Assembly (NCBI GenBank): GCA_039591655.1 | Contig: JBDHDE010000031.1 | Span: forward strand, 1-29,448 | Reading direction: 5' to 3' | Source: Gemmatimonadota bacterium | GTDB taxonomy: Bacteria; Gemmatimonadota; Gemmatimonadetes; Gemmatimonadales; GWC2-71-9 | Length of the DNA: 29,448 nt | In this document: positions 2 to 12,631 of the stretch, in pieces | How the letters are laid out: every line of letters begins with the position of its first letter | Position numbering within the stretch: position 1 is the first letter of the stretch | Position numbers and translations under genes: made by a program | The notes under the pieces: model-generated | The model's database searches: none | Told to the model about the DNA's origin: nothing | What the model saw: the letters and a program-made list of their open reading frames with translations, nothing else

Positions 2-1333
2 GAGCAGTACGCGAGCGGGGGCGGCGGCGGGTGGAGCTTCGGCGTGAGCCTCGGATGGGGCTGGCCCGGATTCTCGATCGGATGGGGCTGGGGCGGCTGG
101 GGCTGGGGAGGCTGGGGTTGGGGATGGGATTACCCCTACTACTGGTGGCCTCGGTACGGCTACTGCTGCGGGTACTACTACTACCCCTACCCGCACCACT
201 ACTACTACCCGTACTACGGCTATGGCGGCTACGGCTATGGCCGCTACGGATACGGCGGCTACGGCTACTACGGGTACAGGCACTACGGCTACAACCGGTA
301 CGGCTACGAGCGGGTGGGGCTCTCGCGCTACACGTTCAAGTCCCAGCGCGCCAGCTTTGGTGAGGGCGGTATCACGGTGTGGGGGCGCGACCGCGGCGCG
401 GCCACCCGTTACACGTCCGGCAGCGCGACCTCGTTCCGGCGCAGCGCCACGACCAGCGGCCAGCTGACCCGCCGGGCGGCACCGTCCGCTGCCACTGGGG
501 CGCGCCGCACGACACCGTCCAACGTCCAGACGACCGGGCGGCGCACTACGCCGTCCAACGTCCAGACCACCGGACGGCGTGCCGCACCGGACAACGTGCA
601 GACCACCGGGCGCCGCACCACGACCCCGGACCGGACCACGACGGGCCGCCGCGTGCAGCCCGACGGCTGGGGCATTACCGACGGCCGGCGCACCATCCAG
701 ATGCGGGACCAGACGGGAGAGCGCCGCACACCGACCAACCCCAGAGCCACCGAGGGGCGGCGGCAGCCCAGCGCGGCGGACCAGCAGCGGCGCATCCCGG
801 AGCGCGGCGTGCAGCAGGGAGCGGAGAGGCACACGCCCAGCGGTCGCTCACTCGAGCAGCAGGGGCGGCGTGAGACTCCGAGCGCCACGGGCCGGGCTAC
901 CAGCAGCAGGTCCGCCAGCGGTGGCACGCCACGGCGCGCCACGACGCAGCAGCAGCTGCGGCAGTCAGCGACCCAGGAACCCAGGACCGCGACCGGCCAG
1001 CGGCGGACGACGCCGCAGTCTACTGGGCGCGCCGGTCAGGGCAGTCCCAGTCGGCCGAGCTTGGAGCGCCGGGCGGCACCGAACCGTACCGCATCACCGA
1101 GATCCAGCCCCCCTTCGTCGGTACGGACGGCTCCCGCCCGCCGCCCCGCTCCACAGCCCACGGTGCGCGTTCCCAACCGGAGCTCGCGGCCCAGCGCGTC
1201 GCCGGCACCACGGTCCGCACCACGGGCGGCACCACGGTCAGCGCCGCGAGCGGCACCACGATCCGCGCCGCGGTCGGCCCCGCGATCCGCCCCCCGCGCA
1301 CCGCCGCGGCGGTCGTCACCCCGGCGGCCCTGA
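2..1333 (+). CDS. Low-complexity protein, 5'-truncated by the window edge: Gly/Trp/Tyr-rich block followed by a long Arg/Thr/Ser/Pro-rich disordered tail
   Basis: Frame is open from position 2 (EQYASGGGGGWSFGVSLGWG...) to TGA at 1331-1333. Internal repeats are in codon register, and a hairpin follows the stop. No recognisable folded domain in the visible part. Confidence 0.8.
   Translation, partial: EQYASGGGGGWSFGVSLGWGWPGFSIGWGWGGWGWGGWGWGWDYPYYWWPRYGYCCGYYYYPYPHHYYYPYYGYGGYGYGRYGYGGYGYYGYRHYGYNRYGYERVGLSRYTFKSQRASFGEGGITVWGRDRGAATRYTSGSATSFRRSATTSGQLTRRAAPSAATGARRTTPSNVQTTGRRTTPSNVQTTGRRAAPDNVQTTGRRTTTPDRTTTGRRVQPDGWGITDGRRTIQMRDQTGERRTPTNPRATEGRRQPSAADQQRRIPERGVQQGAERHTPSGRSLEQQGRRETPSATGRATSSRSASGGTPRRATTQQQLRQSATQEPRTATGQRRTTPQSTGRAGQGSPSRPSLERRAAPNRTASPRSSPPSSVRTAPARRPAPQPTVRVPNRSSRPSASPAPRSAPRAAPRSAPRAAPRSAPRSAPRSAPRAPPRRSSPRRP
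509..616 (+). repeat. Three tandem 36-nt coding repeats (TTPSNVQTTGRR x2, AAPDNVQTTGRR)
   Basis: Visible in both DNA and translation; synonymous differences between units. Confidence 0.9.
1205..1300 (+). repeat. Eight tandem 12-nt coding repeats encoding APR[S/A]
   Basis: Translation APRS-APRA-APRS-APRA-APRS-APRS-APRS-APRA with degenerate codons. Confidence 0.9.
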
Positions 1334-1341
1334 GCTCATGA

Positions 1342-1370
1342 AGAGGGGAGCCGATTGGCTCCCCTCTCTC
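1342..1370 (+). terminator. Probable intrinsic terminator hairpin
   Basis: Perfect 11-bp stem AGAGGGGAGCC-gatt-GGCTCCCCTCT, 8 nt after the stop codon. Tail is pyrimidine-rich but not poly-U. Confidence 0.65.
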
Positions 1371-1491
1371 GTGCCCCCACCTGGCGAGCGGCCCGGTACG
1401 CCCGTAGGTTTCGGGCGCTGATGCCCCCAAACCTCGCCCGTTCCCGACCGATTCCCATGCACGCGTGCCCCGCGGCGCGTCCGGAGCACTC

Positions 1492-4287
1492 ATGATCGGC
1501 CGCGTGCTCACGTCCCCGCTCATCAAGGTGCTCTTGTACTATGCGCTGCTGGCGGCGGGCGTGGTGCTCCTGGCGCAGCTGTTCCCCGTACTGGAGAGCG
1601 CGTTCTCTCTGGAGCGGTTCCGCTCGCTGATCGGGCTCGGTGACTTTGAAGCGGTTTTGCCCGAGGGCGCCACCACGAGCGCGAGCGGCGGCGGCTTCCT
1701 GGGGCAGCCCAACCCAGGCCTGCGCACCCTCATCGCAGTGGTCGGGGCCCTCATCCTGGTGATCCCCATCGCCTGGGTCTACATGGTCACCAAGCGGGAG
1801 GTCCGCTACGACCAGTCTCTGGTCCACACGATCATCATGCTGCCCATCGCGGTGACGGGCATCGTGATCATCGTGCAGGACTCCATTGCCCTCGCGTTCT
1901 CCCTCGCCGGGATCGTGGCAGCAGTGCGCTTCCGGCACACGCTGCAGGACACCAAGGACGCGGTCTACATCTTCCTCGCAATCGCCGTGGGCCTGGCTGC
2001 GGGGGTGCAGGCACTGACCGTCGCGCTCGTGGTATCCGCCCTCTTCAACGTCGTGGTGCTCGCATTGTGGCGCTTCGACGTGGGCAACATCTATGCGCAG
2101 GAGAGTCTGCCGAGGGAGGGGCGCCGCCCCACACCGCCCTCCCTTCCCAGTCGGCGCGCGGGCTCGGACGTGCTGCAAATCTCGGGCCTGCTCGCGGAGC
2201 AGGCCGGCGCCGCAGCCGAGCAGCCGGCCGACGCCATGCGGCCGGTCATCAACCCCGAGCTCTCCCTGTTGGAGTTCCACTCCCGGGTACTGGCTCTGGC
2301 CGAGGATGCCACCACGCCGCTCATTGCCCGGCTGCGATTCCTCTCGATCTTCAGCTCCAACATCGACGAGTACGTGAGCATCAAGGTGGGCGGCCTCAAG
2401 CAGGCGGTCGCGGAGGGAATCACGAGGCGCTCCATCGATGGCCGGATGCCGCGGGAGCTGCTCCACGCCATCGCCATTCGGCTGCGCGCGCTGATGCGAC
2501 GCCAGTACCGGTGCTTCAACGAGCTGCGAGAGCGATCGCTGCCGCAACACGGCATCCGCATCCGCTCGTGGGACGGTCTCTCCAAGGAGGAGCTGGCCTA
2601 CCTGAAGGGCTACTTCGACGAGCGTGTCTTCCCGATGCTCACGCCCAAGGCGATCACGCAGACGCCGGGGCACCCGTTCCCGTACATCGAGGAGCTCATG
2701 CTCTCCCTCGCGGTTGTGGTCCGCGACCCGCGAACCTCGCGCGACCACTTCGTGCTCCTCGACATCGCGGACGCCATGTCGCGCTTCGTGCAGCTGCCCG
2801 AGAGCAGCGACTTCGTGGCCATCGAGGACCTCATCCGCGCGCACATCGACGCCCTCTACCCCGCCCGCCAGGTCCTCGAGGTACACACCTTCCGGATCAC
2901 CCGGAGCGCCGAGGTCGAGTTCGGCGACGCTACGGCTGACACGTTCCTGGAGGTCGTCGAGGATGAAGTGCAACGCCGGCCGCAGGGCGCCGTGGTTCGG
3001 ATCGAGGTCGAGCGCTCCATGCCCTATGCCATTCGCGATCTCCTGCTGCGGGAGCTGCGCCGCGAGGAGGCGGGTAAGGGTGTCACCATCGAGGCCTCGG
3101 ACATCTATGAGACCGATGGCGTGGTGGACCTCGGCTCGGTCGTGGAACTCACGGATCTCCCCATGCCGGAGCTGGATTACCCGCCGTTCGAGCCGGCCAT
3201 CCCCATCGAGCCGGACCGCTCGGTCTTCGAGGTCCTGGACCAGCGCGATGTGCTGGTGTACCACCCTTACGACTCATTCGAAGCGAGCGTTCAGCGCCTC
3301 ATCGTGGACGCGGCCAGCGACCCGGATGTCGCCTCCATCAAGCTGACGCTCTATCGGCCCGGGGGACCATCCGAGATCGCCGACGCCCTGCTGCAAGCGG
3401 CGGCCGGCGGCAAGGATGTCACGGTGTTCGTCGAAGTGAAGGCGCGGTTCGACGAGGCGCTCAACATCTATTGGGCCAAGCAGCTGGAGCGCGGCGGGAT
3501 CCACATCGTGACCGGCATGGTGAAGCACAAGACCCACTCCAAAGTGGCCCTCGTCGTCCGCCGCGTGGGCGATGAGCTGAAGCGCTATGCGCACGTCGGC
3601 ACCGGCAACTACAACCCGGAAACCGCCTGTCAGTACACCGACCTCGGGCTCCTCACTTCGGATGAGGCCATCTGCTCGGACCTCAGCGTGCTGTTCAACG
3701 AGCTCACCGGCTCGTCGACCCCGCCGGCAGGCAGGTACCAGAGGATCCTGGTATCACCGACCTTCATGCTGCGGCGCTTCCTGGAGCTCATCGAGCGAGA
3801 GGCGGAGCACGCGCGCGCCGGACGGCCGGCTCACATCAGGGCCAAGGTGAACGGCCTGGCCGACGCCGAGATCATCGAGGCGCTGTACCACGCCGGCAAG
3901 GCCGGCGCGCGTGTCGACCTCATCGTGCGCAGCATCTGTGCGCTGCGTCCCGGCATGCCCGACGTCTCCGAGAACATCCGCGTAGTGAGCGCGGTAGGCC
4001 GCTTCCTGGAGCACGCCCGGATCTTCGCGTTCGCCAACGGAGGGGAGCCGGAGTTCTACATCGGCTCGGCGGACTGGCGACCCCGCAACCTCCGCCGCCG
4101 CGTGGAGGTAACGGCCCCCGTGCTCGACCCCGTGGCGTGCGAGCGGTTGGACCGGATCCTGGAGACCGAGTTGCGAGACCCCACTGCATGGCACCTGCAA
4201 ACGGACGGACAGTACCTGCGGGGGAGCGCGCACCAGGGGGCCCGCAGCGCCCAGGACCAACTCCTGGAGCGGGCCACGGAGGCTTGA
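1492..4287 (+). CDS. ppk1: Fusion protein: N-terminal DUF4956-type membrane domain (about 6 hydrophobic segments) plus full-length polyphosphate kinase 1
   Basis: GGAG at 1483-1486 precedes ATG 1492 (alternative GTG 1465). DUF4956-like motif ALAFSLAGIVAAVRFRHTLQDTKDAVYIFLAIAVGLAAG. From about 2236, PPK1 motifs: HPFP, HPYDSF, TLYR, EVKARFDE, KTHSK, HVGTGNYN, GRFLEHAR, GSADW, RNLRRRVE. Confidence 0.9.
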   Translation: MIGRVLTSPLIKVLLYYALLAAGVVLLAQLFPVLESAFSLERFRSLIGLGDFEAVLPEGATTSASGGGFLGQPNPGLRTLIAVVGALILVIPIAWVYMVTKREVRYDQSLVHTIIMLPIAVTGIVIIVQDSIALAFSLAGIVAAVRFRHTLQDTKDAVYIFLAIAVGLAAGVQALTVALVVSALFNVVVLALWRFDVGNIYAQESLPREGRRPTPPSLPSRRAGSDVLQISGLLAEQAGAAAEQPADAMRPVINPELSLLEFHSRVLALAEDATTPLIARLRFLSIFSSNIDEYVSIKVGGLKQAVAEGITRRSIDGRMPRELLHAIAIRLRALMRRQYRCFNELRERSLPQHGIRIRSWDGLSKEELAYLKGYFDERVFPMLTPKAITQTPGHPFPYIEELMLSLAVVVRDPRTSRDHFVLLDIADAMSRFVQLPESSDFVAIEDLIRAHIDALYPARQVLEVHTFRITRSAEVEFGDATADTFLEVVEDEVQRRPQGAVVRIEVERSMPYAIRDLLLRELRREEAGKGVTIEASDIYETDGVVDLGSVVELTDLPMPELDYPPFEPAIPIEPDRSVFEVLDQRDVLVYHPYDSFEASVQRLIVDAASDPDVASIKLTLYRPGGPSEIADALLQAAAGGKDVTVFVEVKARFDEALNIYWAKQLERGGIHIVTGMVKHKTHSKVALVVRRVGDELKRYAHVGTGNYNPETACQYTDLGLLTSDEAICSDLSVLFNELTGSSTPPAGRYQRILVSPTFMLRRFLELIEREAEHARAGRPAHIRAKVNGLADAEIIEALYHAGKAGARVDLIVRSICALRPGMPDVSENIRVVSAVGRFLEHARIFAFANGGEPEFYIGSADWRPRNLRRRVEVTAPVLDPVACERLDRILETELRDPTAWHLQTDGQYLRGSAHQGARSAQDQLLERATEA

Positions 4288-4296
4288 GGGACTCTC

Positions 4297-5757
4297 CTAT
4301 GTCGCCAGGTTGACGTTGAGATAGGCCGGCTCGCCAGTCACCTCACGCTCGACGACCGGTGCCAACCAGGCCGGGAGCTCAACGGACGTGTCGGGAGCGG
4401 GAAGCTCGACCTCCGCGAGCACCAGGTCCCGGTCCAGAAACTCGTCGATTTCCCAGGTCAGCGGCCCGTCGGGTACAAAGTGGCGCCGCTTGCGCAGGCG
4501 TCGTCCTTCGGTGAGGGGCCAGAGCTGCGCGAACAACTCCGCCGTGGTCTCCTCCTCCAGCTCGGTGCGGCTGATGCCAGCACCCAACTTCACGGTGCGG
4601 TAGTGACGGATCTCGACCCCCCGCTGCGCCCGGCGGAGCCGCTCCTGGAGCTTGGCGCCCGGCAGCCATCCCTGCTCGATCTCCGCTGACTCCGCTCCGT
4701 TGACGGCCTCGGGAACAGCCCGCAGCAGGTACTTCCGCTCGACTTCTACGAGGGCACGGCGGTGCTCGGCCAGGATCCGTAGCACGGCCTGGAGCACGCT
4801 GTGCAGCGCCGCCGGTGCGCCGTTGTGCCATTCGGCAGCGAACTGCTGGAACAGCCGGTCCTGGGCTTCCCGACCCAACCGCGCCAGTGTCAGCATCCCC
4901 GGTGTGGCGTTGCGCCGGCGCGCGGCCCGGATCTCCCGCTGGTCCGCAGTGGCCCGCGCCTCCACCTCGTGCAGCCTGCGCACGTGCTCGGCAGCCGCCA
5001 CCTCCCCGGCCGCCGCGAACTCCCGGTCCACCACCTGGGCGTCGCGCAGATCTCCCAACACGGTCTGCAGCGCCTTGAGCCGTTTCACGGCTTCCCGTGA
5101 CGGCTTCACATCCTGCGATACCAACTCGAGCAGGTAGCGCAACCGCTTCGCACGGATCCGCGCCGCGTGCACCGCGACCTCGTCACCGGCGGCGCGGATG
5201 CCGCCGATCAGCTCCTCGAGACCGGCGGCATGATCCTCCACGAGGTCGGCGAGGACGCCGGCGTACGTCGCGACCGACTCCTCGACCGCGCCCCGACCGG
5301 CAGCCTCCGTCAACCATTTGCGGGTACGCCGCTCGAGACGCGGGAACGTCCGCTCGATGGCCTGCCGACTCGCCGCGTACGCGTGGTCGCGACGCTGCTC
5401 CAGCTGTTTGAGAAACCAGGCAGCTCCGACCCGCTGCCCCCGGGTCAGGTGCTCTCGCTGCGACCGCACCCAGAGAATCTGCACCTCGGTGTCCCGCGCC
5501 TCGTTGGTGGCGCGCTGCAGGTCCCGCATACGGCGCCTGAGCTTCTTGGATGGCGGGTCGTCGAGGTACGGGCGGAAGGCCCGCAGCACGCTGCGTAGGC
5601 GACGCAATGCGACCCGGAAATCGTGCAGCGCCTCCGGGTCCTCTGGGTCATCCAATCGCGCCCACGCCGCCTGTGCGTCTTCCAGCAGGGCGACCCCGAT
5701 GGCCCCTACCGCCTCCGGCGGGGAGCGCTCCAGCAGGTTCCGCGGATACTTAGGCAC
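4297..5757 (-). CDS. CHAD domain (N-terminal) plus CYTH/triphosphate tunnel metalloenzyme domain (C-terminal)
   Basis: CHAD motifs EALHDFRVALRRLRS, HAARIRAKRLRY and LQTVLGDLRD. CYTH motifs EVERKYL, IEQGW, TVK, KRR, WEIDEF, LAEVEL and EVTG. GTG start overlaps the end of sixA. Confidence 0.9.
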   Translation of the reverse strand: MPKYPRNLLERSPPEAVGAIGVALLEDAQAAWARLDDPEDPEALHDFRVALRRLRSVLRAFRPYLDDPPSKKLRRRMRDLQRATNEARDTEVQILWVRSQREHLTRGQRVGAAWFLKQLEQRRDHAYAASRQAIERTFPRLERRTRKWLTEAAGRGAVEESVATYAGVLADLVEDHAAGLEELIGGIRAAGDEVAVHAARIRAKRLRYLLELVSQDVKPSREAVKRLKALQTVLGDLRDAQVVDREFAAAGEVAAAEHVRRLHEVEARATADQREIRAARRRNATPGMLTLARLGREAQDRLFQQFAAEWHNGAPAALHSVLQAVLRILAEHRRALVEVERKYLLRAVPEAVNGAESAEIEQGWLPGAKLQERLRRAQRGVEIRHYRTVKLGAGISRTELEEETTAELFAQLWPLTEGRRLRKRRHFVPDGPLTWEIDEFLDRDLVLAEVELPAPDTSVELPAWLAPVVEREVTGEPAYLNVNLAT

Positions 5758-6265
5758 GGGCCCCGCCCAGCAGTCGGAGATGTTTGGGGGCTAGGGACCA
5801 CTTGAGCTGACCACCGCCGCCCTCAGGCTCACCGGAGAAGGTCACGAGGCAGGCCGCGCCCTTCTTCAGCTCGATGAAGGTGTTATCGGAATCGGCCAGG
5901 AGGTAGCACACCAGCCAGCTCAGGTCGGGTTCGTGTCCCACCACTGCCACGGTACCGCTGGCGCCCGTTCCCCGGAGCCACTCCACAATGGCAGGGGGCT
6001 CGGCGCCGGAAGTCAGCGCTCCGACTTCCTCGATGGCAATCCCCCCGTAGGCCTCGGCCACGATCACCGCTGTCTGCCGGGCGCGCACCAGCGGGCTCGA
6101 AGCCAGCAGATCGATCTGTGGCACGACGCGGGCGAGCCCCCGGGCACCCTGCGCCATCTTCTTGCGCCCCTCATCGGTCAGTGGACGCTCGCCGTCGTCC
6201 TGACCCGATCGGGCGAAGGTCTCGCGATCCTCGGCGATGGCGTGCCGCACCACGAGGAGGTCCAT
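5750..6265 (-). CDS. sixA: Phosphohistidine phosphatase SixA
   Basis: RHAIA catalytic motif, RPLT..G, SSPLVRARQTA, VGHEP and LKKG; GGAGG RBS. Confidence 0.9.
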   Translation of the reverse strand: MDLLVVRHAIAEDRETFARSGQDDGERPLTDEGRKKMAQGARGLARVVPQIDLLASSPLVRARQTAVIVAEAYGGIAIEEVGALTSGAEPPAIVEWLRGTGASGTVAVVGHEPDLSWLVCYLLADSDNTFIELKKGAACLVTFSGEPEGGGGQLKWSLAPKHLRLLGGARA

Positions 6266-6277
6266 CCCATCACCTCC

Positions 6278-8437
6278 CTACGTGGGACTCCGCTGCCGTC
6301 CGGCTCCCTCGCGCCGTTGCCGTGTGCTGGGAGGGAACGGCACGCGGTGCTCGCCGCTATCGATAGCCGCCTCACGGGCGAGTCCCTGGAGCATCGTCTG
6401 GGACCGCACCAGTGACTCGTCGTCGGGCGCGCGATGCACGTAGCTGCCATCCGGCCACAGCACGCGCGCCTTGACGTTGTCGGCGAGCGCCATCTCCAGC
6501 ACCTCATCCACGATGCGCTCCCTGAGCCGCCGGTCGACCACGGGGAACATCACTTCGATACGGCGGAAGAAGTTGCGCGGCATCCAGTCGGCGCTCCCCA
6601 GGAAGACCTCGGGATCCCCGGCATTCTCGAAGTAGAACACCCGGGAATGCTCCAGGAACTTGTCCACGATACTGATCACGCGAATGTCGTCGGACACTCC
6701 CGGTAAACCGGGCAGCAGGCAACAGATCCCGCGGATGATGAGGTCGATGGAGACGCCCGCCTGGGAGGCCCGGTACAGGGCGTCGATCACCGAGTGCTCC
6801 ACCAGCGCGTTCATCTTGACGATGATCCGTGCCGGCTTGCCCGCCTCGGCGTGCCGCTGCTCCCGCTCGATGAGGCCCACGATCTGCTCCCGCAGACCCT
6901 CCGGGGCCACCAACATGCCGTGCCACTCGTGCCCCCGGGCGTAGCCGGTCAACAGATTGAACAGCGCCGTCGCGTCCTCGCCGAACTCGGGCTTGGCGGT
7001 GAACAACCCGATATCGGTATACACCCGCGCCGTCACCTCGTTGTAGTTGCCGGTGGAGAGATGGAGATAGCGCCGGATCCCGTCGGGCTCCCGCCGCACC
7101 ACCAACGCCGCCTTGCAGTGCGTCTTGAGACCCACCACCCCGTACACGACGTGAACGCCCGCCTGCTCCAGCTGCCGCGCCCAGTTGATGTTGTTCCGCT
7201 CGTCGGCCCGCGCCTTGAGCTCCACCAGCGCCGTCACCTGCTTGCCGTTCTGCGCCGCGCGGCCCAGGGCCGAGATAATGGCGCTCGGCGCGCTGGTGCG
7301 GTACAGCGCCTGCTTGATGGCCAGCACGTTGGGGTCGTCTGCCGCCCGCTTAATGAACTCCACCACCGCGCCAAACGACTCATAGGGGTGGTGCACCAGA
7401 ACGTCCTGCTGCCTGATGACCTCGAAGATGTCCTCGGCGTGGGCGAACGCCGGCACCGAGCGGGGAACCAGGGGCGCGTCCTTGAGGTGCTCGAATCCCT
7501 CCGCACGGTGCAGGGCCATGAGGCCCGTGAGGTCCATGGGGCCGGTGACCCGATATACGTCGCTGGGATCCAGCTCATGCGCCTCGGTCAGCGAGTCGAG
7601 CAGCATTGCTTCCACCCCGGCCGCTATCTCCAGCCGCACCGGATCGCTCTGCCACCGCTGCTGCAGGCTCTCCTCGATGGTCTCCAACAGGTCCTCGGCC
7701 TGTTCCTCCTGGATCGTGAGGTCCGCGTTGCGGGTCACGCGGAAGACACCGTGACTGATGACCCGGAATCCCTGGAACAGATCCCCGAGGTGGCGCTGGA
7801 TGATGTCCTCGAGGAGGATGTAGCGCAGCTGATCGTCGCTCCGGGATACTACCACCACCCGGTCCAGGACCGACGGGACCTGCACCACCGCCAGGTGCGC
7901 CTGCTCCTCGCCGTTCGACTCCACCCGCAGGGCGATGTTCAGGCTCTTGTGGTGCACGTGGGGGAACGGGTGGCCGGGATCCACTGCCAGGGGAGTCAGG
8001 ACCGGGTGAATGCTCACCCGGTAGAACGTCTCAACGGTATCCCGCTCGTCGGCCGTCAGATCGTCGTACTCCACGCGCACGATGCCCGACGCCTCGAGGG
8101 CGGGAGTGAGCTCTTCCTCCAACAGGCGACGTTGCTCCCCCGCCAGGTCCCGGACCCGCTCATCGATGGCCAGCAGCTGCGCGTCGGGGCCGGAGCCGTC
8201 GGCCCCGTAGTCCTGGGGCTCGACGCCGGCGACGACCTGCTGGTGCAGGCCCGCGACCCGAACCTCGAAGAACTCGTCGAGGTTGGAACTGAAGATCGCG
8301 AGGAACTTGAGGCGCTCGAGCAGGGGATTGCCGGCGTCCGCGGCTTCTTCCAGGACGCGGCCGTTGAACTCGAGCCAGCTCAGCTCACGATTGAGGTAGT
8401 GCTCCGCAGAGTACTGCGGCCCCGGTCGCTTTCCCAT
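6278..8437 (-). CDS. ppk1: Polyphosphate kinase 1 (soluble, conventional size)
   Basis: NRELSWLEFN, SSNLDEFFEVRVAGL, HPFP, HHPYESF, LKTHCK, HLSTGNYN, FLEHSR, GSADWMPRN and RRIE. Confidence 0.95.
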   Translation of the reverse strand: MGKRPGPQYSAEHYLNRELSWLEFNGRVLEEAADAGNPLLERLKFLAIFSSNLDEFFEVRVAGLHQQVVAGVEPQDYGADGSGPDAQLLAIDERVRDLAGEQRRLLEEELTPALEASGIVRVEYDDLTADERDTVETFYRVSIHPVLTPLAVDPGHPFPHVHHKSLNIALRVESNGEEQAHLAVVQVPSVLDRVVVVSRSDDQLRYILLEDIIQRHLGDLFQGFRVISHGVFRVTRNADLTIQEEQAEDLLETIEESLQQRWQSDPVRLEIAAGVEAMLLDSLTEAHELDPSDVYRVTGPMDLTGLMALHRAEGFEHLKDAPLVPRSVPAFAHAEDIFEVIRQQDVLVHHPYESFGAVVEFIKRAADDPNVLAIKQALYRTSAPSAIISALGRAAQNGKQVTALVELKARADERNNINWARQLEQAGVHVVYGVVGLKTHCKAALVVRREPDGIRRYLHLSTGNYNEVTARVYTDIGLFTAKPEFGEDATALFNLLTGYARGHEWHGMLVAPEGLREQIVGLIEREQRHAEAGKPARIIVKMNALVEHSVIDALYRASQAGVSIDLIIRGICCLLPGLPGVSDDIRVISIVDKFLEHSRVFYFENAGDPEVFLGSADWMPRNFFRRIEVMFPVVDRRLRERIVDEVLEMALADNVKARVLWPDGSYVHRAPDDESLVRSQTMLQGLAREAAIDSGEHRVPFPPSTRQRREGAGRQRSPT

Positions 8438-8441
8438 CGCG

Positions 8442-10076
8442 TCACTTCCCCGGCGCGGCGGCGCCCTTCCGCTTCGCGCCGCGCGCTGCGGCCCCCGGAC
8501 GTCGCTTCGTCGCAGTGCGCCGCCTGGCCCACTCGAGCGTCAGCTGTACCCCGAAGGCACTCTCGAACAATGCACTCTTGCGCTCGGCGTCCGCCAGCTC
8601 TACGGCGGGACTCCGCGTGGCATCCACTACCATCGTTACGGCTCCGTCACCGACCTCGCACTCGACGCCCCGCACGATCTGACCGTGGGTCCGATCGAGG
8701 CCGTCGGCGACCCGCAGGATCCCGCTCAGATTCCGTATCAGCAGGCGGTCGGCTCGGTCGAGGTGGTGCAGGTTCTCGTGCCACCTCTTCGGGAAGGCGC
8801 GCCGGTGGTACCGGGCAACGTTGGCGATCAGCTCGACCTCGCCCGGACTGAAACCTCGGAGATCGCCGTGCATAATCAGGTGGTAGGCATGCTTGTGGTG
8901 CTTGGCATGATTGATCAGGTAGCCAACATCGTGGAGCAGCGCCGCCGCCTGCAGGATGTCCCGGCCCGAGGACGGTAGCTCGTACGGCTCCCGTAGCTGC
9001 TCGAAGATCTGCACGGTCAGGGACGCAACGTGCTCGCAGTGCCGCTCGTTGGAACGGCACTTCCGCGCGAACTCCCGCACCCACTCCATGCGGTCCTGCA
9101 CCGGGGCGCCGGCAGCCCCAGCGGCGCCGAGTTCCTCCACCATCGATACCAGAAGGCCGTCGCGGACTCCGCGATCGTTCACGAGGATGCGCTGCGTCCC
9201 GAGACGCTTCGCCAGACGCTGGATCGCGGCGGCTCCGGCGACGATGATGTCGGCGCGTTTCGGGTTCAGTCCGCAGAGGCCGCGGCGGGCTCCCAACGGG
9301 GTCTCCAGCAGCCGATCCAGCACGCGCGCGAGGTCGGCCCGGCTCATGGCGTAGTTGCCCACCTGGGTCACGCGCCCCTCCCGCTCGCACTGCACCATCT
9401 CGCCCAGGTTGGTGAAGGTCCCTCCGCTGCCCACCATCACCTCGGCCGCGAAGGGCGGTCGCCCCATGGTCTGCTTGATGGTCTTGTCGATGGCCCGCCG
9501 CAGCTTCTTCCAGTGCTTCGGCCTGAGCGGATCGGACTTGATGTACCGCTCCGTCAGGCGCACCGCACCCAGCGGCAGGGAGTGCACCTGGTTCACCACG
9601 CCGTCGGCGGCCAGGACGACCTCGACGCTCCCTCCCCCGATGTCCACCACAGCGATGGAGCGCTCCTCGAGGGTGAAGTGCCGCATCACGCTCTTGAACG
9701 CGAGGCGGGCCTCCTCCTCGGGCGGGATCACCTCGATGCGCACGCGGCAACGGCGCGACGCCTCGCGCCGGAACAACTGACCGTTGGAGGCCTCCCGCAC
9801 TGCGCTGGTGGCAACCACCCGAAGCTCCTGCACACCGAACCCGTCGGCGATTGCCCGCATCTTTGTCAGCGCTTCCAAGGTGCGCTCCATCGGCCCGCGT
9901 CCGATGCGGCCGGTGCGGTAGAGCCCGCGGCCCAGCCGCGTCATCGCCAGCTCCTCATCCAGCACGCGGTAAGTACCGTCGGGCACCACCTCCGCCACGA
10001 CCAGGCGGATGGAGTTGGTCCCCACATCGATGGCAGCGAGCCGGGGCCGGTCGCCGTTGCCCGACGCCTCAGCCAC
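8442..10076 (-). CDS. ppx: Ppx/GppA exopolyphosphatase with C-terminal HD domain
   Basis: AAIDVGTNSIRL, ATSAVREASN, EEARL, DIGGGSVE, GSGGT, GVRDG, AALLHDVG, HHKH and ARYHRR. Stop is 4 nt upstream of the ppk1 start. Confidence 0.93.
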   Translation of the reverse strand: MAEASGNGDRPRLAAIDVGTNSIRLVVAEVVPDGTYRVLDEELAMTRLGRGLYRTGRIGRGPMERTLEALTKMRAIADGFGVQELRVVATSAVREASNGQLFRREASRRCRVRIEVIPPEEEARLAFKSVMRHFTLEERSIAVVDIGGGSVEVVLAADGVVNQVHSLPLGAVRLTERYIKSDPLRPKHWKKLRRAIDKTIKQTMGRPPFAAEVMVGSGGTFTNLGEMVQCEREGRVTQVGNYAMSRADLARVLDRLLETPLGARRGLCGLNPKRADIIVAGAAAIQRLAKRLGTQRILVNDRGVRDGLLVSMVEELGAAGAAGAPVQDRMEWVREFARKCRSNERHCEHVASLTVQIFEQLREPYELPSSGRDILQAAALLHDVGYLINHAKHHKHAYHLIMHGDLRGFSPGEVELIANVARYHRRAFPKRWHENLHHLDRADRLLIRNLSGILRVADGLDRTHGQIVRGVECEVGDGAVTMVVDATRSPAVELADAERKSALFESAFGVQLTLEWARRRTATKRRPGAAARGAKRKGAAAPGK

Positions 10077-11362: not shown

Positions 11363-12631
11363 ATGCGGAGACTGTCGGCCTTCTCGGTGATGGGTTTGGT
11401 GGCGGTCGCCCTCGGCATGTTGCCCGAAGCCGCCGCGGCACAGGACGGCGCACCGGCCTGCCTCGACTGCCACACCCGGGAAACACCTGGGATCGTCTCT
11501 GACTGGCAGATGAGCCGGCACGGCCAGCAAGGCATCACGTGCTCGGTGTGCCACGGCGCCGATCACTCCACGGCGTACGATACCGACGCCGTGAAGATCC
11601 CGACGCCGCAGACGTGCGAGCTGTGCCACAGGGATCGGGTAGTGGAGTTCACGCGGGGCAAGCACGCCGCTGCCTGGGCCGCCATGAACGCGATGCCCAC
11701 GACACACGCGCTACCCATGGCCCTCACCCAGGGCATGCGGGGTTGCGGCGGGTGCCACAAGATCGGCCTCAAGACCGACGAGGAGATCCAGGCGCTGAAG
11801 GAGAGCGGCACAGGGTTCGGCGTCGCCTCATGCGACGCATGCCACACCCGCCACCTGTTTTCCGTGACGGAAGCGAGCCAGCCCCAAGCCTGCCAGACGT
11901 GCCACATGGGGTTCGACCATCCCCAGTGGGAGATGTACTCCGCCTCGAAGCACGGCGTGCGGTTCTTGCTCAGGCAGAACGGGACGCTGCCGGAGCACGT
12001 AGCTGCGCCCACGTGCCAGACCTGCCACATGGTGGGCGGCAACCACGAGGTGCGCACGGCGTGGGGCTTCCTGGCGGTGCGGCTTCCCCTGCCGGAAGAC
12101 GAGCAGTGGGCAGCGGACCAGGCGACGATCCTGCAAGCTCTGGGTGTGCTGGACCCGGAGGGCAACCCGACGAGCCGGCTCGATGTGGTCCGGGCTGCCG
12201 ACGTGGCACGCCTCACCCAGGAAGACTGGGACCGGGAGCGGGGAATGATGATCCAGGTCTGCAGCCGCTGCCACTCGGAGAACTTCGCCAGGGGAGAGCT
12301 GCAGAAGGGGGACGAGATGATCCGGGAGACGGATCATCTTCTGGCCGAGGCCATTCGGATCGTGGCCGGCCTGTACGAGGAAGGCACACTGGAGCAGCCC
12401 GAGAGCTACGCCTACGCGTTCCCCGACCTGCTGACCTTTCATGACGCACCCACGCCCATCGAGCAGAGGCTCTTCGTGATGCACCTGGAGCACCGGATGC
12501 GGGCGTTCCAGGGCGCGTTCCACGCCAACCCGGATTACTCGCTGTGGTACGGCTGGAGCGAGATGGTGCGGGACCTGGCGGAGATCAAGCAGATGGCGGA
12601 GGACATGCGGCGCCACGCCGCGGAGCCGTAG
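11363..12631 (+). CDS. Octaheme cytochrome c, hydroxylamine oxidoreductase (HAO) family, with signal peptide
   Basis: Eight CxxCH motifs: CLDCH, CSVCH, CELCH, CGGCH, CDACH, CQTCH, CQTCH, CSRCH. HAO-family segments GKH, HTRHLFS, CHMGFDHPQWEMY..SKHG and HANPDY. Signal peptide ends AAAA-Q; strong RBS. Confidence 0.88.
   Translation: MRRLSAFSVMGLVAVALGMLPEAAAAQDGAPACLDCHTRETPGIVSDWQMSRHGQQGITCSVCHGADHSTAYDTDAVKIPTPQTCELCHRDRVVEFTRGKHAAAWAAMNAMPTTHALPMALTQGMRGCGGCHKIGLKTDEEIQALKESGTGFGVASCDACHTRHLFSVTEASQPQACQTCHMGFDHPQWEMYSASKHGVRFLLRQNGTLPEHVAAPTCQTCHMVGGNHEVRTAWGFLAVRLPLPEDEQWAADQATILQALGVLDPEGNPTSRLDVVRAADVARLTQEDWDRERGMMIQVCSRCHSENFARGELQKGDEMIRETDHLLAEAIRIVAGLYEEGTLEQPESYAYAFPDLLTFHDAPTPIEQRLFVMHLEHRMRAFQGAFHANPDYSLWYGWSEMVRDLAEIKQMAEDMRRHAAEP

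Follow-up and report, generated by a model that had tools for sequence, protein, structure and literature searches.

The closest described relatives of the protein considered here come from bacteria and yeast. Escherichia coli Ppk (PDB 1XDO/1XDP; TIGR03705) is a four-domain polyphosphate kinase. In yeast VTC (Vtc4/Vtc3/Vtc1), a cytoplasmic polyphosphate (polyP) polymerase and a membrane domain are carried on one chain (PMC9911596). Gram-positive pel operons carry cotH, polyP polymerase and DUF4956 accessory genes (10.1101/768473; PMC12345266), and the MgtC/SapB family (PF02308) also has to be compared. The present analysis concerns a 29,448-nt stretch of Gemmatimonadota DNA (contig JBDHDE010000031.1, hereafter the window), which is the whole of contig C31 of a 95% complete genome (G000), and a gene on it whose product, P0001, joins a DUF4956 membrane domain to a complete PPK1. 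This DUF4956-PPK1 fusion is real and conserved, and is carried by some uncultured Gemmatimonadota.

P0001 shares its four kinase domains and catalytic residues with E. coli Ppk but differs from it by an N-terminal six-helix integral membrane domain and by belonging to a separate paralogue clade with substitutions of its own. With yeast VTC it shares the association of a cytoplasmic polymerase and a membrane domain in one chain and the coupling of synthesis to transit that is proposed below. Its polymerase is however a PPK1 (PLD-like) and not a triphosphate tunnel enzyme, its membrane part has six predicted MgtC-like helices instead of three, with no basic residues within the core helices, and it has no SPX domain. 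P0001 is not a VTC member, the polymerase being different, though it may work like one. The pel accessory genes offer the same combination of a DUF4956 membrane protein, a polyP polymerase and an exported CotH-type protein, whereas in the module described here the polymerase is a fused PPK1, DUF4956 has an extra N-terminal helix and lacks its soluble domain, and Omp85 barrels are among the partners. The scanned loci yielded no pel genes. MgtC/SapB proteins resemble P0001 weakly in Pfam over the membrane core, and free forms have a soluble C-terminal domain; P0001 scores below the family cut-off and is fused to an enzyme, and its genome has a separate true MgtC. A literature search, which did not cover subscription papers, found no DUF4956-PPK1 fusion, no integral-membrane PPK1 and nothing on Gemmatimonadota ppk1.

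The fused gene and its recurrence

The original prediction, made from the sequence alone, described one continuous reading frame for a DUF4956-like membrane domain and a complete PPK1, and profile searches and the single frame bear it out. The frame runs uninterrupted from the ATG at 1492 to the TGA ending at 4287. The Pfam match to DUF4956 spans residues 90-202 and passes the PF16316 gathering threshold (44.7 bits, cut-off 30.6); the assignment holds for the membrane part only (profile positions 4-116 of 169), the soluble C-terminal domain being absent. The PP_kinase N, middle, C1 and C2 domains all score above their curated Pfam cut-offs (residues 253-915), and TIGR03705 gives 697.5 against a cut-off of 465.85. 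The source records of close homologues assign them to Gemmatimonadota or Gemmatimonadales, and databases name the fusion proteins simply polyphosphate kinase. No promoter or terminator consensus was found within 1200-4500.

The joined frame, with no stop in the linker, is present in all ten same-genus genomes and in G022. Across the 301 genomes of the family, 22, in four genera, have a match running through the membrane domain, the linker and the start of PPK1, and 180 have some DUF4956 match; this last tally takes in four unpublished genomes, none of them among the 22. In the databases, 67 of the 73 matches to the N-terminal 260 residues of P0001 carry both DUF4956 and PP_kinase. Sixty of these are short forms, mostly of 910-955 residues, some partial and with P0001's own cluster counted in, and seven are long forms of 1255-1319 residues. 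A contig from a marine-sediment run (X1) spans the gene with 9 substitutions and no gaps, and one from a second run (X2) covers 1846-4291; both runs belong to one study, which may be the source of the assembly. Both halves are under purifying selection, with a ratio of nonsynonymous to synonymous polymorphism (pN/pS) of about 0.04-0.2. The expected recurrence elsewhere and continuity across the linker were thereby both found, and an assembly artefact or a stop codon in the linker is ruled out by the same-genus and family genomes, the database proteins and the spanning contig. The TAG in the G006 fusion sits near the C-terminus and not in the linker, and the short frame in G506 comes from a gap of Ns within PPK1. 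P0072 and P0068 were not counted as fusions: both lack a contig, the membrane part of P0072 is identical to that of an unfused protein in G171, and they are probably spliced gene calls.

The frame had also been argued for from composition. All three forward frames are indeed open across the linker. Over 90 bases starting at 2122, third-position GC content is 0.87 for the coding frame and 0.80 and 0.67 for the other two. Such composition is weak frame evidence in the linker, so that it is the homologues that settle the single frame. Translation from the internal ATG at 2236 (Met249) had been named as a way in which the idea could fail; methionine occupies this position in 1 of 53 parsed linkers, and a conserved internal start is unlikely. 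The linker, described beforehand as about 50 residues rich in Pro and Ala, is present at 59 residues (49-75 in orthologues) but is not mere filler: a basic motif, R-(K/R)-R-G-S-x-hydrophobic-hydrophobic-D, is found in 52 of 58 short fusions under a strict pattern and in 58 of 58 under a loose one.

A dedicated PPK1 paralogue

Alignment to 1XDO places H435, D470, H592 and E623 of E. coli PPK1 at H682, D717, H841 and E872 of P0001. The roles of these residues are set out in PMC12248826 and 10.1101/567040. All four are kept in 54-55 of 55 short fusions, and His682 aligns with H435, in agreement with the earlier claim that the KTHSK motif retains the autophosphorylated histidine. Judged from these residues, the fused PPK1 is catalytically intact. 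It falls, apart from the ordinary PPK1 of the window, in a paralogue clade with an SH-like approximate likelihood ratio (SH-aLRT) support of 100. Arg863 of P0001 is a clade-specific replacement of methionine beside the SADW motif, shared by 54 of 55 short fusions and by all 13 CYTH-type proteins examined but by none of 7 ordinary PPK1 proteins, and the SADW loop of the paralogue contains extra arginines. The fused PPK1 is thus a paralogue dedicated to this association.

In unfused members of the paralogue clade, the N-terminus is formed by a CYTH-like domain, which Pfam scores under the cut-off (E 1.7e-4) and which lacks the ExExK start typical of CYTH domains. Their second N-terminal domain looks Nudix-like, a label given by eye. 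A further paralogue architecture, a 919-residue CYTH-like-PPK1 protein without the second domain, is encoded at 6600-9356 of locus L025 (G053).

The short fusions form one clade, both in a first tree (55 rows, after leaving out 6 rows without the trimming motif) and in a later PPK1 tree that sampled 24 of 61, was trimmed by BLAST and took in P0034, P0035, P0039, L018, L024 and L031. The long fusions, of the arrangement DUF4956-CYTH-X-PPK1 and found also in G289, form two groups among unfused proteins. Approximately unbiased (AU) tests reject a single clade of all fusions (p 6.8e-10) and of the long fusions (p 2.7e-57); the groups were set by domain content after a tree had been seen, under LG+G4 with a quick search and 24 of the 61 short fusions, and L013 from G023 is one row of the tested tree. 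A single origin of all fusions is thus rejected. Descent of the short fusion from a long one is not supported either, as the PPK1 tree nests the short form in neither long group. The unfused sisters keep the soluble C-terminal domain of DUF4956 that the fusions lack, which makes repeated fusion simpler than repeated fission. DUF4956 was therefore probably fused to the paralogue at least three times, with loss of its C-terminal domain each time. The membrane-domain tree is poorly resolved, 25 of its 71 forks being open. The CYTH-like part of the paralogue was not found, with one query, in any of 12 fusion genomes; as read from these sequences, the short form has lost that part as well.

The membrane domain

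About six hydrophobic segments had been expected. Hydropathy and an AlphaFold2 model (residues 1-205, 138-sequence alignment, mean predicted local distance difference test 85.3) both give six long helices, at residues 9-30, 75-100, 108-127, 132-150, 154-171 and 175-194. Small residues abound in helix 4, whose end on the predicted cytoplasmic side has R146 and the invariant R148. Conserved lysines and arginines occur only at predicted cytoplasmic helix ends (K101, R146, R148, K155). The N-terminus, loops 100-109 and 146-156 and the stretch following helix 6 are enriched in basic residues, and the long loop 32-79 is net acidic. By the positive-inside rule this pattern would place the PPK1 part in the cytoplasm, as a topology check suggested earlier had foreseen.

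The profile of DUF4956 is covered only to position 116 of 169, and free DUF4956 relatives continue for about 80-150 residues after the membrane part. We take this missing soluble domain to be ACT-like, following PMC12345266 in part. Conservation is higher in the membrane core than in the enzyme (92% identity against 79% between G000 and G007, 97% against 91% between G003 and G004, 83% against 79% between G000 and G004), which is more than a passive anchor would need.

Pfam similarity to MgtC reaches E 0.054 for P0001 (14.3 bits, family cut-off 31.4) and E 0.0003 for canonical DUF4956. An Atlas cluster near the membrane domain, with PF16316 in 94% and PF02308 in 21% (score 0.86), is a lead only. 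Profile-profile comparison (hhalign) with a shallow local MgtC alignment gave a probability of 0.4%, and the kinship with MgtC is, at the sequence level, distant. Foldseek with the membrane-domain model gave 0 matches at E<=0.001, and a PDB profile search was blank. The VIA fold search returned unrelated helical bundles within background (best Z 9.5), and its list, from which VTC chains are absent, excludes nothing. A comparison with one bacterial DUF202 protein gave 0.5%, which does not exclude VTC-type kinship.

Partner genes and proposed function

In relatives, the CYTH-like-PPK1 paralogue lies beside a separate DUF4956 gene and genes for exported CotH-like or Omp85 proteins. Around DUF4956 genes, 38 chosen loci contained the paralogue in 18 cases, a CotH-like gene in 20 and an Omp85 barrel gene in 12, and neither of the last two in 6. 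Tallied over 61 genomes, which are related and not independent, DUF4956 is present in 19 of 20 paralogue-bearing genomes (the exception, G023, is unpublished and 83% complete) and in 30 of 31 with a CotH-like gene, and each of the 38 genomes with DUF4956 also encodes a CotH-like or Omp85 partner. The CotH-like partner occurs in 12 of 12 fusion genomes among the 61, its identity as CotH being weak, and in four further genomes (G252, G353, G388 and G395) its gene immediately precedes the short fusion. The same family also has canonical VTC-DUF4956 pairs, in G035 and G016; the VTC catalytic domain PF09359 is absent from P0001 and from its genome. The idea that the fusion acts as a Rosetta stone linking DUF4956 to polyP synthesis is strongly supported by the joint occurrence with the paralogue, the repeated fusion and these VTC pairs.

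Visual inspection of signal peptides suggests that the CotH-like and Omp85 partners are exported. A D-R-H motif, likewise seen by eye, is the basis for calling the Omp85 N-terminal part kinase-fold, and comparison of the CotH-like family with this part gave 0.2%; PDB profile searches with either found no solved relative. Contig C15 of the source genome (L043 7425-9651) carries two tandem CotH-like genes, 49% identical, with conserved cysteines and N-terminal hydrophobic signals, and many genus members have 2-3 copies. On contig C5 (L044 7510-11243) a metallophosphoesterase gene is followed by one for an Omp85 barrel with the kinase-like D-R-H motif in its N-terminal part. P0070 and P0071 join DUF4956 to a YjiK/SdiA-regulated propeller or a CotH-like domain, and their junctions look like frameshifted read-through.

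Two relatives in separate subclades, G004 and G008 (both 97% complete), have lost genes next to the fusion from contiguous syntenic loci: the whole ppx-ppk1-sixA-CHAD block in G004 and ppx-ppk1 in G008. No other PPK1, PPK2 or PPX was found over cut-off in these two incomplete genomes. Both keep the fusion and the CotH-like and Omp85 genes, which argues that the fusion tracks its envelope partners and not cytoplasmic polyP turnover.

P0001 is tentatively taken, at slightly under an even chance, to be the membrane polyP synthase of an envelope phosphate-delivery module that would feed exported kinase-like partners. The PPK1 part would use ATP to synthesise polyP on the inner side of the membrane, and oligomers of the DUF4956 domain would let the polymer, whole or in short fragments, through to the periplasm. 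A cytoplasmic ring of arginines (R146, R148) would stand where the small-residue helix 4 opens. In the periplasm, where ATP is lacking, the CotH-like or barrel-linked kinase-fold enzymes would then take polyP as their phosphoryl donor. In free DUF4956 the C-terminal domain would serve to dock the polymerase, and the fusion would take its place. This reading is favoured by the convergence of two unrelated polymerases on DUF4956, VTC (in G035, G016 and the pel operons) and the PPK1 paralogue, by the repeated fusion, the exported partners, the conservation of the membrane core, R146/R148 and the SADW-loop arginines, and by G004 and G008, where the fusion and both partners are kept and the other enzymes were not found.

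Several points weigh against export. The paralogue is present in only 19 of the 38 DUF4956 genomes, and five genomes (G042, G044, G046, G054, G056; 85-100% complete) have DUF4956, a CotH-like gene and PPK2, while neither PPK1 nor VTC was found in them. Support for the CotH label is slight, Pfam CotH matching 2 of 21 members and an Atlas neighbour having PF08757 in 17% of its members, and the linker, besides its length, varies much in sequence (47-79% identity). As the PPK1 reaction is reversible, cytoplasmic polyP could be recycled in G004 and G008 even with PPX missing. By its sequence the membrane domain is MgtC-like. Its helices 2-6 are nearly without charged residues, with family means of up to 0.15 K/R per helix, in contrast with the yeast VTC pore, lined by basic residues of TM1 (PMC9911596). 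Salmonella MgtC acts by binding PhoR (PMC6658541). In Streptococcus intermedius, loss of SIR_1592 or CotH lowers aggregation in sputum medium by more than 50%, with no comparable drop described for loss of the polymerase gene (PMC12345266). SIR_1592 is described as MgtC plus ACT with four transmembrane segments (PMC12345266) and, by gene order, would be DUF4956. The original prediction of a polyP channel or anchor delivering polyP outward is thus upheld in its link to polyP synthesis; the channel itself stays hypothetical, the domain being MgtC-like with charge-poor helices and DUF4956 occurring in some relatives where no PPK1 or VTC was found. The exported CotH-like and Omp85 partners, which lay beyond the reach of that prediction, are the best indication of the destination of the product.

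The negative result for PPK1 extends further within family f3, where none was found in G038, G040, G050, G058, G060, G042, G044, G046, G054 and G056, a second search confirming this for the last five. This is possibly a PPK2-only lineage, PPK2 having been found in those five genomes.

The main rival makes the membrane domain an MgtC-like regulator or scaffold, which would sense an envelope signal, perhaps from the exported partners, or bind a membrane complex such as ATP synthase or PhoR, and would switch or position PPK1 while polyP stays in the cytoplasm. This is rather unlikely. The Pfam similarity, the Atlas lead, the MgtC-plus-ACT description of the S. intermedius gene (PMC12345266), the uncharged helices and the persistence of DUF4956 without PPK1 or VTC all speak for it, and strong conservation of the core would also fit a binding surface. 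It nevertheless explains less simply the kinase-like partners of all 38 DUF4956 genomes and the retention of the fusion where PPX and PPK2 were not found, and it has to accommodate both the distant MgtC kinship and a separate MgtC gene in the same genome.

A reverse flow is improbable. Next to the membrane, PPK1 would regenerate ATP from stored polyP, and the exported kinases would receive ATP or another small phosphoryl donor through DUF4956, with no crossing of polyP itself. Such a role would suit a constant core of DUF4956 and CotH-like protein with an optional polymerase, a CYTH-like domain that without its ExExK start could be a polyP-binding module, and the position of the fusion beside the ppx-ppk1-sixA-CHAD storage operon in most genomes checked. 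It meets the difficulty that G004 and G008 have no other polyP synthase found to supply substrate, and that VTC, the canonical partner, has synthesis as its known activity (PMC9911596).

Phosphate scavenging, with exported phosphoesterases and beta-propellers freeing phosphate for import by DUF4956 and storage as cytoplasmic polyP by the tethered PPK1, has little probability. Metallophosphoesterase, SdiA-regulated/phytase-like and phosphodiesterase genes do flank DUF4956 in several loci, and MgtC promotes phosphate uptake, though via PhoR (PMC6658541). PPK1 however uses ATP and not free phosphate, so that the fusion would bring no gain by channelling, and storage without PPX or PPK2 would be odd in G004 and G008. 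Least credible of all is a neutral fusion of adjoining genes or an assembly or frameshift artefact, the artefact version being already refuted: the genes do adjoin in relatives, so that chance deletions can join them, and the linker is open in three frames, but the recurrence of both domains in database proteins and across the junction in family genomes, the gap-free X1 contig, the purifying selection on both halves and the conserved linker motif all oppose it.

The remaining features of the window are collected with those of the fusion in Table 1. The ordinary PPK1, 2 kb from the fusion, sits in the convergent ppx-ppk1-sixA-CHAD operon. It has ARAD in place of ARFD, the third residue being Phe in 6 and Ala in 1 of 7 orthologues. 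The CHAD protein has a C-terminal extension, absent in G008, that opens with an ExExK-like motif and has no Pfam CYTH match at E<=5. This extension is presumably CYTH-like. If so, the CHAD-then-CYTH order reverses the usual one described in 10.1101/567040. Upstream of the fusion, a forward frame at 44-1333 encodes a protein without a Pfam or NCBIfam match, in which TTGRR units recur, one stretch is rich in Trp, Gly and Tyr, and the tail is of low complexity (Pro/Arg); this gene precedes the fusion in several relatives. A multiheme cytochrome c with several CxxCH motifs (11363-12631, forward strand) is syntenic with the polyP locus across the genus.

Table 1. Features of the fusion gene and its neighbours in the window
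Feature	Position	Strand	Basis
DUF4956(TM)-PPK1 fusion gene (P0001), 931 aa	1492..4287	+	profile matches, orthologues, spanning contigs
GGAG, ribosome-binding-site-like, 5 nt 5' of the start	1483..1486	+	sequence; putative function
Extra N-terminal membrane helix (residues 9-30), then predicted periplasmic loop	1516..1581	+	hydropathy, charge pattern, AlphaFold2
Five-helix DUF4956/MgtC-like membrane core (residues 75-194)	1714..2073	+	Pfam, alignments, AlphaFold2
Cytoplasmic linker (residues 194-252), 59 aa	2071..2247	+	alignment of orthologues
Conserved basic linker motif (residues 221-229)	2152..2178	+	pattern counts in short fusions
Complete PPK1, DUF4956-linked paralogue clade	2248..4284	+	Pfam, TIGR03705, alignment, tree
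CHAD-domain protein, convergent neighbour	4297..5757	-	Pfam
SixA-like histidine phosphatase, convergent neighbour	5750..6265	-	below TIGR00249 cut-off
Ordinary soluble PPK1, 41% identical to the fused one	6278..8437	-	NCBIfam, tree
Ppx/GppA-family exopolyphosphatase	8442..10076	-	Pfam, NCBIfam

It is still debated whether secretion or lysis brings bacterial polyP to the outside (PMC12248826). The source of phosphoryl donor for exported kinases, which lack ATP, is likewise unexplained. The fusion puts a well-understood enzyme and a candidate conduit in one polypeptide, so that a single gene, and no multi-gene module, suffices to test the function of DUF4956. It is possible, if somewhat doubtful, that Gemmatimonadota have several times built from unrelated parts a one-chain analogue of the yeast VTC synthase-translocase, and that polyP export powers periplasmic or surface kinase-like enzymes. 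If this is true, DUF4956 would be a bacterial polyP export pore served by VTC-type or PPK1-type polymerases. Even if transport proves wrong, repeated fusion together with two unrelated polymerases makes a strong Rosetta-stone assignment of a widespread domain of unknown function to polyP metabolism. Overall, the fusion suggests a possible bacterial route in which polyP is synthesised at the membrane and passed on to extracellular enzymes.

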